From contig MFPT01000002.1 in assembly GCA_001782805.1 (NCBI GenBank), forward strand, positions 5,401 through 69,400: a stretch of DNA of 64,000 nucleotides, in the 5' to 3' direction. The notes beneath the pieces are model-generated. The model had not been told where the DNA came from and ran no database searches. It saw only the letters and a program-made list of their open reading frames with translations. The first letter of the stretch is position 1. Each line of letters opens with the position of its first letter. Of this stretch, positions 675-2,766 are shown piece after piece. The DNA comes from Candidatus Magasanikbacteria bacterium RIFCSPHIGHO2_01_FULL_41_23 (GTDB lineage: Bacteria; Patescibacteriota; Patescibacteriia; Magasanikbacterales; UBA922). A program made the translations under genes and the position numbers.

Positions 675-2766
675 AAGCCCTCAGGTTTAAAAATTTTTCT
701 TCATTAAGAATAGAAACGCCAAGTTTTTCAGCCTTATCCGCTTTACTTCCCGGGTCACTTCCGACTATAACATGGTCGGTTTTTTTACTGACTGATTCGG
801 AAATCGTGCCACCGAGAGAGCGAATTTTGGCTTTGGCCTCATCGCGCGTCATGGTTTCTAGGCCGCCAGTGATAACAAAAGTTTTACCGGCCAGTGGTAG
901 GTTGGTTGCTTTTGGTTTGGGGGATTCAATTTTTACACCAGAATCAAGTAGTTCGTCAATCAAATTAATATTACTTTTATCCGCAAACCATTCCGCAATT
1001 GATTCAGCCACGCGTGGGCCAATATCAGCCACTGATTGTAATTCCTCAAATGCGGCCGCTTGAATTTTTTTAATAGTGCCAAAATGTTCGGCTAGGCGAA
1101 TAGCAGTCTCTTCTCCAACATGCCGAATTCCCAATCCAAAAATAAAACGCGGCAATGAAACTTTTTTGGCAGCAGCAATCGCGCTGACTAAATTATCCGC
1201 GGATTTTTCGGCGAATCGTTCCAATGGTTCCAGATCACCGACACTTAAAGTAAAAAAATCAGCCGGATTTTTTACCAAACCTTCATTCATAAGATGTTCC
1301 ACGATTTTTTCACCGAGTCCGTCAATGTTAAACGCCTTTTTGGAAACAAAGTGAATCAGACGTTCGCGTTCCTGCGCGAAACATTTTCTGTTGAGACAAA
1401 ATAATCCCACACTGGTAGTCTGTTTACCCCGAGCAACTTGTCCCGAGCCCCTCGACTCCACTCGGGGTAAACTTAGTCGAGGGAAGTCGAGGTTTTTTTT
1501 ATCGGCTATTTCTTGACGTGCGACATTTGATCCGCAGATCGGACATTTTTGCGGCGCACAAAATATTTTTTCCTCCCCAGTACGCATTTTTTCCAACACG
1601 CGAATAATTTTGGGAATAATATCACCGGATTTTTCCACGACAACAGTGTCGCCAACGCGCGCGTCCAAGCGTTTTATTTCCGCGAAATTATGTAGTGTCG
1701 CGTGGGTGACCGTTGTGCCGGCTAATGATACCGGTTCCAAAAGCGCGACCGGAGTCAAGGCTCCGGTTCGTCCGACTTGCACATAAATATCTTTAATTTT
1801 GGTTGTGCCTTGTTCGGCCGCGAATTTGAAGGCGATTGCCCAGCGCGGCGCTTTGCCCGTAAAACCCAAGATTTCTTGATATTTTTTTTGATTAACTTTT
1901 ATGACTACGCCATCAATCCAAAAATCTTGACTGTCTTTTTTCCCCCGCCATTCTTCCCAAAACTTTATAATTTCAGAGATTGAATAGACCACTCTCCAAT
2001 TATTATCAGTTTTAAAACCAATTTTTTTCAACTCCTCTAATTCTTCGGCTTGAGTTTTAATATTTTCTTCCGCTGATGAAATATCATACGCAGTCAAGGC
2101 TAATTTGCGACTGGAGACAATTGATGAATCAAGCTGACGAATCGTGCCCGCGGCCGCGTTGCGTGGATTCGCAAACAATGGTTCGTTATGACCAGCGCGC
2201 TCTTTATTTATGGTTGCCAATGTTTTCGCTGACAACCATACTTCACCTTCGGCCACTAATGATACCGGTTTGGTTAATTTTAATGGAACGGTTTGAATGG
2301 TGCGTACATTTTGCGTTACATCCTCGCCAATCACGCCGTCGCCGCGCGTAGCCGCGTTTTTTAAAATGCCGTTTTCATAGGTCAAAACCATGTGCAAGCC
2401 ATCAATCTTCAATTCGCAGACATAAGAAATATCATCCGGCCGTTCACCCAAATCACGCTCCAAAATTTTTAAAATACGCTCCTCCCAATCTTTTAAATCG
2501 TCTTCATTAAACGCGTCATTAAACGACCATTGCGGCACACTATGTTTTATTTTATTAAATTTATCCAGAGGCTTGCCAGCGACGCGTTGTGTCGGTGAAT
2601 CGGACGTAATTAATTCCGGATGCTCAGCTTCAATTTTACGCAATTCAGCCATGAGCCCGTCATACATGGCATCAGTCACTTCCGGATCATTGAGCACATG
2701 ATACCGGTACCGCAAATCATCAATTTGGGCGCGGAGACGATTTATTTTTTTTGTGATTTCAGTCAT
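673..2766 (-). CDS. ligA: NAD-dependent DNA ligase LigA
   Basis: 697 aa. It carries the KxDG adenylation motif (CELKIDG), OB, zinc-finger, HhH and C-terminal BRCT regions. The zinc-finger region has an in-frame insertion that is described as a separate feature. Confidence 0.95.
1421..1500. repeat. GC-rich palindromic repeat element (copy A) inserted in-frame inside ligA
   Basis: The sequence is tgtttaccccgagc...ctcggggtaaacttagtcgagggaagtcgagg followed by T8. It contains 10-bp inverted repeats (ttaccccgag/ctcggggtaa). On the minus strand it encodes the extra segment ...[31 protein letters not shown]... between the CPICG and C...NRKC zinc-finger cysteines of LigA. Related copies occur at 27362-27390 and 59790-59843. 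Confidence 0.5.

Follow-up and report, generated by a model that had tools for sequence, protein, structure and literature searches.

An in-frame insert in the LigA zinc finger of a Candidatus Magasanikbacteria bacterium is probably a nested cluster of a ~24-nt stem-loop repeat shared across bacterial phyla

To our knowledge, neither the mechanism that mobilises the Rickettsia palindromic elements (RPEs) nor an encoded enzyme for the SDR repeats of cyanobacteria is known. The latter (SDR1-8), which Elhai et al. 2008 (Genome Res 18:1484) reportedly described from heterocyst-forming cyanobacteria, are said to be dispersed repeats of 21-27 nt that are seemingly mobile, some of which reportedly fold into hairpins and have other repeats, and occasionally genes, as their insertion sites. 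In PMC5861425, SDRs are reported only in Nostocaceae. RPEs are palindromic elements of ~150 bp that are scattered through the intergenic DNA of Rickettsia and also lie stop-free and in frame within unrelated housekeeping genes, where the added peptides are thought not to disturb the fold (PMC10969869). Prokaryotic MITEs are non-autonomous repeats able to make in-frame fusions with host open reading frames (ORFs) (PMC10969869), and REPs are known targets for further insertions (PMC3116915). Here we describe a repeat family from the window (the whole stretch of 64,000 nt that was analysed) which occurs in intergenic DNA as well as in frame inside genes.

The ligA gene, encoding NAD-dependent DNA ligase, was located at 673..2766 on the minus strand as an intact 697-aa ORF (OGH64857.1; UniRef A0A1F6N4H5) with homologs at 64-73% identity and the full domain set according to Pfam (Nlig-Ia, DNA_ligase_aden, OB_DNA_ligase, HHH_2 (HhH), and BRCT). 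Its zinc-finger segment, Cys408-x2-Cys411 ... Cys457-x4-Cys462 (1381..1545, minus strand), was delimited by translation and by alignment of the cysteines to the Thermus filiformis and E. coli LigA structures 1V9P, 4GLX, and 2OWO, and was found to span 55 codons compared with 32 in the closest ortholog. The four cysteines that bind zinc are all retained and do not vary across 64 homologs. A lineage-specific, GC-rich insert of 72 nt was placed by protein alignment at 1426..1497 (minus strand; residues 424-447), with its length of exactly 24 codons based on alignment with 120 homologs and codon alignment with the closest ortholog; the repeat sequence proper spans 1422-1492. This insert lies between Cys408/Cys411 and Cys457/Cys462 (i.e., Cys 2 and Cys 3 of the solved LigA structures), thus confirming, with the frame intact in the 697-aa ORF, the position that an earlier note on this DNA had assigned to a GC-rich element at 1421-1500. 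The ortholog alignment which that note had proposed as a check likewise bore out the insert as lineage-specific: the closest LigA orthologs (73% identity and below) are without it and display a clean empty site in the codon alignment, which reads GAT AAA AAA CAA in the closest of them (L005). The added length had been put at about 27 aa, a figure that is too high because the residues KQTTSV are ancestral; the alignment gives 24 aa. Due to the flanking A/T-run, the boundaries of the insert can slide by up to 5 nt, and in the one empty/filled pair compared the A-run leaves a junction or target-site duplication of 0-5 nt ambiguous.

As the insert is 72 nt in length and free of stop codons, it can be read through as 24 extra residues, and we infer that it is translated and that the enzyme is active. 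In the AlphaFold2 model of LigA, the only residues with pLDDT under 50 were 23-26, 62-68, and 422-448, and the strands flanking the insert (414-419 and 451-457) were modelled with confidence; the inserted residues are predicted to form a disordered loop that caps a beta-hairpin which is confident in all other parts. Mapping onto solved structures, as the earlier note had suggested, agrees with its expectation in that the insert falls in a predicted surface loop. The identical 697-aa protein is present on 20 contigs, and the insert DNA was identical at the four places retrieved, which come from four different ENA assemblies. Overall, the data support an insert that is lineage-specific, in frame, and tolerated as a surface-loop peptide.

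The window was scored with a covariance model (R1) built from repeat copies in other genomes. Rather than the single 80-bp palindromic element originally supposed, R1 matches on both strands revealed roughly three nested copies of the ~24-nt unit GTTTAC-CCYGAGC-N3-GTCGARGG. The matches included (i) an inner unit, GTTTACCCCGAGTGGAGTCGAGGGGC, that is intact and oriented like the ligA sense strand (1447..1475, minus strand; 41.4 bits, E 1e-13); and (ii) one or more interrupted outer units in the opposite orientation (1419..1485, plus strand; 25.2 bits, E 4e-7), the latter scored on identical DNA in which positions 11282-11348 (minus strand) of L001 correspond to window positions 1419-1485 (plus strand). 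The inner unit sits in the loop of the outer unit halves, with GTTTACCCCGAGC (1422-1434) and TTGTCCCGAGC (1438-1448) as 5′ halves and GTCGAGGG (1476-1483) and GTCGAGG (1486-1492) as 3′ halves, and a 12-bp stem is formed between 1422-1433 and 1461-1472. Since the unit lengths of 22-25 nt are not multiples of 3, the cluster would have arrived either as one 72-nt block or stepwise in frame. The same nested module was detected at many genome loci and, by a metagenome scan from whose results the window's own locus was absent, in 3 unrelated metagenome contigs.

Two intergenic units were identified elsewhere in the window, in agreement with the relatives noticed earlier at 27362-27390 and, in reverse orientation, at 59790-59843. 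Copy 2 is a single unit, GTTTACCCCGAGCGTAGTCGAGGGG (27361..27389, plus strand; R1 42.2 bits, E 5e-14), whose end lies 2 nt from the stop codon of a Phage_holin_4_2-family gene on the minus strand (27391..27732, by Pfam) and which is antisense to both flanking genes. Copy 3, GTTTACCCTGAGCTTGTCGAAGGG (59804-59831, minus strand; R1 34 bits, E 8e-11), is antisense to its neighbouring genes and embedded in a longer hairpin (59785..59850; fold z = -4.55 on the plus and -2.53 on the minus strand) whose arms, CTCGATGCTCGGG and TCGAGTGGTCGAG, are built from family-like half-sites and which is bordered by T6 and A5 runs. The 13-mer GTTTACCCCGAGC occurred 4 times when up to 2 mismatches were allowed, versus 0.76 expected. 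A minority CCCGAG/GAGGG subtype (16 of 106 copies elsewhere) accounts for the inner unit and the outer half-sites in ligA as well as for copy 2, and this sequence likeness was taken to suggest that the window copies are related within the genome. Look-alikes at 47288-47305 (in ORF 46221..48536), 45525-45548, and 36624-36651 (R1 E 0.2-0.7) were not counted. One of these, a possible degenerate unit CTGAGC-GAGCGAAGCGA-GTCGAAG (45525..45548, plus strand; R1 E 0.2, not significant alone), lies in the enlarged hairpin loop, with 32 extra nt, of a candidate AdoCbl riboswitch that scored 33.6 bits with the AdoCbl model, under the gathering score of 50.

The unit fits a compact hairpin of four C:G or U:A pairs, a tandem G.A/A.G, a G:C pair, a bulged T, a C:G pair, and a GNA triloop. 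Its CCY and RGG positions were found to covary: pair 12:25 is UA in 84 copies, CG in 16, UG in 4, and other in 2, with the observed value reached in 0 of 500 shuffles, a covariation of a single base pair that could stem from two sublineages instead of structural constraint. The C-GNA-G loop is present in 77 of 127 copies (61%), and G28 is conserved in 99 of 106, though it was not imposed by the search pattern. The two ends of the unit (GTTTAC... and ...GTCGAGG) do not match as inverted repeats. In the folding proposed in the earlier note, the ligA insert formed its 12-bp stem and the copy 3 hairpin reached z = -4.55 (plus strand); the isolated unit displayed no unusual stability as RNA (z = 0.17). 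No Rfam family covering the unit was found when the whole window was searched at the gathering threshold and one region by E-value. K-turn/K-loop, lambda boxB-like, hammerhead, and H-type pseudoknot structures were each dropped on inspection owing to a misfit of geometry or consensus and to the lack of strand bias.

The exact 24-nt core of the repeat, GTTTACCCYGAGYNNNGTCGARGG, was detected in at least 120 genome stretches, with about 18 phyla among the matches listed, compared with a chance expectation of ~0.5 in 596 Gb by our own arithmetic; the family is thus not peculiar to this genome or lineage. Cultured hosts include Arenibacter, Microcystis, Gloeothece, and Sphingomonas, and cross-contamination is an unlikely source of the identical cores because closed long-read chromosomes and isolate genomes are among the matches. 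In the sampled genomes, 30 of 113 cores (27%) lie inside long ORFs, 15 on the same strand as the gene and 15 on the opposite strand, and this occurrence in both orientations argues for a DNA-level rather than an RNA-level element. In Sphingomonas parapaucimobilis, two inverted units lie 30 nt apart between convergent genes. Flank complementarity of -15 kcal/mol or better was found at 21% of core loci versus 11% of mismatched controls (p = 0.011); the notion that the core is always at a host hairpin tip was true of a subset only, and the hairpin-loop preference is statistically modest. At 7 of ~120 loci the core lies within 62 nt of a same-strand tRNA gene, and some copies top terminator-like hairpins followed by T-runs (L017 and L030). 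A GAGAA subfamily of the repeat is linked to tRNA genes and occurs in arrays. Literature searches by DNA strings, peptide translations, and topic found no published description of the core, with Elhai et al. 2008 outside their scope.

The LigA loop was also examined as a site of insertion. Across 121 LigAs, 12 of the 21 rare internal insertions (≥6 aa) are within 6 residues of the zinc-finger loop. Independent GC-rich inserts occur at this same loop in other Magasanikbacteria LigAs, two of them clearly of the same repeat family, and the loop inserts vary between lineages in sequence and length. In the LigA of P0046, the DK|KQ site that is occupied in the window holds a 24-nt insert, made up of a single 22-nt unit (reverse complement GTCCTGAGCTTGTCGAATGGAC) and AA and compatible with an AA target-site duplication, and the LigA of P0022 carries TGTCATCCTGAGC...GTCGAAGGATC in the zinc-finger loop. 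The permissive nature of the hairpin tip would account for independent LigA inserts in several Magasanikbacteria lineages. Independent insertions at one hairpin tip in sister lineages point to a structurally permissive site in a well-studied enzyme, and the LigA case offers a clean, datable example of non-coding repeat DNA turned into part of an essential protein.

A mobilising enzyme was sought both in the window and near the core. Among the window ORFs scanned there was no Pfam match to a transposase, integrase, or reverse transcriptase, including Y1/HUH transposases. All-against-all BLASTP of 2,014 ORFs from 120 core loci found no protein family common to more than 5 loci; no Y1/HUH transposase was recurrent near 127 cores, and no parent insertion sequence recurred beside the core among the neighbouring genes of 120 loci. 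A phage vector found little support, with only 4 core matches among 2.9 million viral contigs. Three RAYT genes on Chloroflexota and cyanobacterial plasmids, examined with E. coli RayT as tblastn probe, were flanked by GTAGG-type REPs and not by the core.

Our suggestion is that the ligA insert is probably a cluster in which about three copies of a ~24-nt GC-rich stem-loop repeat from a cross-phylum family lie nested, tolerated as a loop of LigA. As to how the unit spreads, it would be a non-coding, non-autonomous DNA whose copies reach new sites either with the help of machinery that is encoded elsewhere or through templated repair, most likely via a single-stranded hairpin intermediate. Hairpin loops that are already present, among them those of other units, may be somewhat favoured as landing sites, and the nesting of units would follow from this. 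The cluster entered the A-run of GAT AAA AAA CAA that codes for the beta-hairpin tip between the zinc-finger cysteine pairs, and in essential genes selection would leave only in-frame, stop-free copies in permissive surface loops.

Other origins were weighed against this one. The unit may instead be a short extragenic palindrome of the REP/REPIN type, for which a RAYT, a domesticated tyrosine (HUH) transposase of the IS200/IS605-like kind present once per genome, would make the copies in single-stranded form; REP-like traits of the unit are its ~24-nt size, the imperfect hairpin, its presence in either orientation, and its clusters or nests, the inverted pair of S. parapaucimobilis resembles a REPIN doublet, and the conserved 5′ flank GTTTAC contains TTAC, a lead only, which we take to be the cleavage and target tetranucleotide of IS608. 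We nonetheless regard this origin as unlikely, as such a transposase was neither found in the window ORFs scanned nor recurrent near 127 cores, the RAYT homologs on plasmids were bordered by classical GTAGG... REPs, and REPs are species-specific and extragenic, whereas the core is near-identical over about 18 phyla with 27% in long ORFs. Without any dedicated machinery, the units might spread and nest where hairpins can form or homopolymers occur, through templated repair or through template switching (quasi-palindrome-type strand switching, or gene conversion from other copies); this would be in keeping with the absence of an enzyme linked to the core, with insertion in a slippage-prone A-run, and with the perfect complementarity of inner and outer halves (the 12-bp stem in ligA; L034 and L122), as fold-back copying would generate. 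However, the same 24-nt core in about 18 phyla would be left unexplained, as would single clean units at sites without prior homology (such as 27364-27388 and the 24-nt insert of P0046), and this route is distinctly unlikely in our judgment.

A host function, with the unit serving as a site bound by a conserved protein, as an element that stabilises or terminates transcripts, or as a signal related to tRNA, would make the LigA loop extension adaptive instead of tolerated. The extreme conservation of the core over phyla, the copies atop terminator-like hairpins, the 7 tRNA-proximal loci, and the inserts kept independently in the same LigA loop by different lineages could all be read in this way, yet there is no orientation bias to genes (copies 2 and 3 run antisense to the genes beside them), the isolated unit is neither unusually stable as RNA nor matched by an Rfam family, and the LigA inserts differ between lineages and are predicted to be disordered; we consider such a function improbable. 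The likeness to RPEs drawn in the earlier note holds for behaviour, as the unit is likewise found as stop-free in-frame insertions, tolerated as peptides, in unrelated genes as well as in intergenic DNA, but does not extend to family membership: with RPEs being ~150-bp elements of Rickettsia (PMC10969869) and the unit being 24 nt, in a Magasanikbacteria (CPR) host and about 18 phyla, membership in the RPE families proper is very improbable. Finally, no point was found in support of an ancestral origin in LigA, of likeness by chance, or of a chimeric assembly, and the probability of these is close to negligible given the clean empty site in the closest orthologs (≤73% identity), covariance-model E-values of 1e-10 to 1e-14, and identical DNA in contigs of 4 assemblies.

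Beyond the reading of the insert as a nested cluster of a cross-phylum repeat, a broader proposal can be made, which we hold as tentative and somewhat doubtful: that the core GTTTAC-CCYGAGC-GNA-GTCGARGG is a mobile hairpin of ultra-small size that spreads horizontally, is served by an undescribed mobilisation system, and is active across most bacterial phyla; that it prefers the loops of hairpins (its own copies, terminators, and T-loops of partial tRNA copies); and that it is a general source of in-frame surface-loop peptides in essential proteins, especially in CPR. A 24-nt sequence that is nearly letter-for-letter the same from CPR to cyanobacteria, Bacteroidota, and Proteobacteria, and that is without a linked gene, raises the question of how such a small DNA spreads or is maintained. 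In practical terms, the units create spurious or altered ORFs in metagenome-assembled genomes, giving peptides such as PFDxAQGK and VYPERSRR, and reduce the scores of riboswitch and domain models.

When compared with known systems, the repeat shares with REP/BIME/REPIN elements the imperfect hairpin of 20-40 nt, the conserved 5′ flank, occurrence in either orientation, clusters, and inverted doublets. REPs are, in contrast, extragenic and species-specific, whereas the core lies in ligA and, for 27% of cores, in long ORFs; REPs usually start with GTAG, while the 5′ flank of the unit is GTTTAC and GTAG appears only as a loop variant in 15 of 127 copies; and a RAYT gene is flanked by its REPs, but no core-flanked RAYT was found among the window ORFs, near the 127 cores, or at the three RAYT loci. 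MITEs (Correia/NEMIS, ERIC, BOX, RUP, Nezha, and others) are similar as non-autonomous repeats in in-frame fusion with host ORFs, yet are 50-500 bp in length, stem from a parent insertion sequence, and carry terminal inverted repeats as well as target-site duplications; the unit has no terminal inverted repeats, no target-site duplication demonstrable from the one empty/filled pair at an A-run, and no parent insertion sequence that we could find. With the SDRs, as they are reportedly described, the unit has in common a size of 24-25 nt, hairpin formation, and nesting, but the Nostocaceae restriction of the SDRs does not fit the pan-bacterial distribution of the core. RPE-1 to RPE-10 are alike in that stop-free in-frame insertion in coding as well as intergenic DNA is also seen for the window repeat. 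They differ in that an RPE is a single long palindrome of ~100-150 bp encoding a conserved peptide of about 30-50 aa, compared with a ~24-25-nt unit (about six times shorter) and a 72-nt nested insert here, and in that RPEs are confined to Rickettsia (Rickettsiales), whereas the present repeat resides in a Candidatus Magasanikbacteria host and its core in about 18 phyla.

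The ligA gene (673..2766, minus strand), whose 697-aa product is an NAD-dependent DNA ligase complete in all LigA domains, was found to carry a lineage-specific in-frame insertion, as the earlier note had proposed; the sequence quoted there was located at 1421-1500. When aligned with 120 homologs, the window LigA displayed 24 additional residues between DK and KQT, while the closest orthologs (P0001 and P0003-P0008) read DK-KQT without an insert. The best homologs (64-73% identity) belong to Candidatus Magasanikbacteria and further members of the Patescibacteria/CPR, and the exact protein is on deposit for Magasanikbacteria bacterium RIFCSPLOWO2_01_FULL_40_15. 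At the DNA level, a clean empty site was present in the GCA_964519725.1 ortholog (GCT GAT AAA AAA CAA ACT), with the filled site in the window reading GCC GAT AAA AAA AAC CTC ... CGG GGT AAA CAG ACT; by this one empty/filled pair the insert is 72 nt within an A-run, with ends that can slide by up to 5 nt. The identical protein was detected on 20 contigs, and the four loci retrieved, each from its own ENA assembly, had the same insert DNA; thus, the insert is not an assembly artefact.

The reading of this insert as a single 80-bp palindrome was abandoned, as matches to R1, a covariance model of the unit built from copies in other genomes, resolved it into an intact unit inside an interrupted unit of the opposite strand. 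The inner unit (1447-1475, minus strand, ligA sense; 41 bits, E 1e-13) lies in the loop of the outer unit (1419-1485, plus strand, opposite to ligA; 25 bits, E 4e-7). The plus-strand order is GTTTACCCCGAGC-AAC-TTGTCCCGAGC-[CCCTCGACTCCACTCGGGGTAAAC]-TTA-GTCGAGGG-AA-GTCGAGG, representing two 5′ halves, an inverted complete unit and two 3′ halves (~3 × 24 nt), and the nesting generates a perfect 12-bp stem (1422-1433 with 1461-1472). The relatives previously noticed in intergenic DNA were found to be two full units: copy 2 (27361-27389, plus strand; 42 bits), whose end is 2 nt away from the stop codon of a holin-family gene on the minus strand; and copy 3 (59804-59831, minus strand; 34 bits), within a longer hairpin (z = -4.55). 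A 48-nt direct repeat of 83% identity (26457-26504 and 59859-59906), which may represent a common promoter or leader sequence or else a small RNA, adjoins copy 3 at its second occurrence. Look-alikes at 47288, 45525, and 36624 were not significant as units (E 0.2-0.7). Separately, a candidate AdoCbl riboswitch (45428-45622; E 1.5e-4; 33.6 bits vs a gathering score of 50 in Rfam) was detected, with two DUF4430 genes (45647..46237 and 46221..48536) downstream; one of its hairpin loops is 32 nt vs 4 in the model, the extra including a unit-like CTGAGC...GTCGAAG, and this enlarged loop may cause the low score.

The unit was further examined for its structure. Among 106 distinct copies, columns 12 (Y) and 25 (R) were paired as U:A in 84, C:G in 16, U:G in 4 and other in 2, a covariation attained in 0 of 500 shuffles; G28, at a position free in the search pattern, was found in 99 of the 106, and the loop C-GNA-G in 77 of 127 copies. 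The sequences fit a hairpin of C-C-C-Y / R-G-G-G, tandem G.A/A.G, G:C, a bulged T, C:G, and a GNA triloop. Both the tandem G.A pair and the GNA triloop are motifs of particular stability in single-stranded DNA; under standard RNA energy rules the isolated unit was not unusual (z = 0.17). As the loci from other genomes were chosen by exact pattern, most columns were thereby fixed, and the covariation, which concerns one pair only, could instead mark two sublineages. The minority C:G subtype was shared by the inner ligA unit, the outer half-sites and copy 2 alike, which suggests local copying within a genome covered here by 64 kb, plus 8.6 kb in L001, a record with identical insert DNA.

The insert is positioned between Cys408/Cys411 and Cys457/Cys462, the two cysteine pairs of the solved LigA structures of Thermus filiformis and E. 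coli. In an AlphaFold2 model (64 homologs; mean pLDDT 82.9), residues 422-448 were of low confidence and without secondary structure, the only other low-confidence segments being two short N-terminal stretches, while the flanking strands (414-419 and 451-457) were confident; thus, the insert is predicted to extend the tip of the zinc-finger β-hairpin by a disordered loop. The alignment columns that hold the four Cys and the KxDG catalytic motif are invariant, and we infer that LigA with the insert would still be functional. Rare internal insertions of 6 aa or more numbered 21 among 121 LigAs, and 12 of them fell within six residues of the hairpin tip. At the DNA level, the homolog P0046 had, between the same DK and KQ, one 22-nt unit (reverse complement GTCCTGAGCTTGTCGAATGGAC) and an AA, 24 nt together; DNA retrieval also revealed TGTCATCCTGAGC-(GGAGC)n-GTCGAAGGATC in the loop of P0022 and other GC-rich hairpins in P0024, P0064, and P0025. 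The tip loop is a permissive insertion site and, with its A-run, possibly a preferred one. SecA (53813-56572) also had enlarged domains, including a DEAD domain of 418 residues vs 290 profile positions, which would mean sizeable lineage-specific insertions in another essential protein.

The exact pattern GTTTACCCYGAGYNNNGTCGARGG was detected in at least 120 stretches of GTDB species-representative genomes, where by our own arithmetic ~0.5 would be expected in a random 596 Gb. Among the matches listed (80 records), about 18 phylum-level groups carried the core, including many CPR lineages, Omnitrophota, Chloroflexota, Cyanobacteriota, Bacteroidota, Gamma- and Deltaproteobacteria, Acidobacteriota, Planctomycetota, Verrucomicrobiota, Zixibacteria, Leptospirales, Binatota, Armatimonadota, Gemmatimonadota, Dependentiae, Ignavibacteriae, and Eremiobacterota; closed chromosomes were among the records listed, as was an isolate, Arenibacter sp. 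6A1. In cultured Microcystis, Gloeothece, Pseudanabaena, and Sphingomonas, plasmids were found to carry related copies. The core was absent from the 5,426 E. coli genomes searched, and only 4 matches occurred in 2.9 million viral contigs. Cores were depleted in coding DNA yet common there, with 30 of 113 lying in frames that stay open for 60 codons or more to either side, vs 338 of 565 random positions; the ORF-internal cores were on either strand (15 each), and residence in genes, in frame, is thus a trait of the family in general.

Regarding mechanism, nesting was seen repeatedly: a nested module, xxCATCCCGAGC[CCCTCGAC-N4-CTCGGGGTAAAC]N3-GTCGAGGG, was found on three unrelated metagenome contigs, and the arrangement CCTTCGCGGA[core]GCTCAGGATGACA in several genomes. 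In a subset of loci the core capped a host-specific hairpin, in some cases with a T-run, and flank complementarity of -15 kcal/mol or better displayed a modest excess (21% of loci vs 11% of controls, p = 0.011). No protein family recurred near the core in the loci from other genomes, and the window ORFs scanned had no match to a transposase, integrase or reverse transcriptase. Beside the three RAYT genes examined, from Chloroflexota and cyanobacteria, the core was not found, the flanks being GTAGG-type REPs; in Sphingomonas, two inverted units between convergent genes resembled a REPIN doublet. Directly upstream of the REPIN-like doublet on the Sphingomonas parapaucimobilis plasmid NZ_CP155752.1 (L135, 1290-1365), a run of ~75 G ending in N is probably an assembly or sequencing artefact of the record.

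Proximity to tRNA genes was observed for 7 of ~120 core loci, far above chance. All cores preceded by GAGAA followed a tRNA gene of the same strand at a distance of 23-62 nt (L008, 906-993; L019, 6462-6485; L033, 238-261; L050, 7096-7551, in a 108-nt tandem array; L067, 6353-6376; L085, 1619-1642). Their layout, [T-stem 5′-like]-RYGAGAA-core-GARY-[copy of that tRNA's T-stem 3′ strand and acceptor 3′ strand] without CCA, suggests a core lodged in the T-loop of a partly copied tRNA or an att-like site. In two CPR loci (L009 and L031) the core adjoins the 5′ end of a tRNA.

Elsewhere in the window (~40% GC), an islet of 57-60% GC (4700-5150; genome ~40%) encodes a 120-aa ORF (4743..5105, plus strand) with no Pfam match, followed by a hairpin; the gene called in the public annotation is on the other strand (4824..5162). 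With cvpA on one side and tatD on the other, genes that are adjacent in L005, a related genome, the islet is probably a small horizontally acquired gene. Two long AT-rich inverted repeats, one with 36-nt arms (38331-38366 / 38465-38500; 92% complementary, 98 nt apart) and the other a 38-nt near-palindrome after a Fic/DOC gene (41955-42036), are unrelated to the GC-rich unit family.

Overall, the best-supported view of the unit is of a hairpin repeat of very small size, non-autonomous and copied as DNA; within essential genes, only in-frame, stop-free units in permissive surface loops would survive. The nearest described things are REPs and the small dispersed repeats of Nostocaceae, the latter reportedly 21-27 nt. 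These repeats (Elhai et al. 2008) are cited in PMC5861425 and PMC3116915. The traits that define REP/RAYT elements and MITEs are either lacking in the unit or only possible for it. The likeness to Rickettsia palindromic elements drawn in the earlier note holds for behavior, namely in-frame, stop-free insertion (PMC10969869), but not for size and host, in which the unit differs from these elements.
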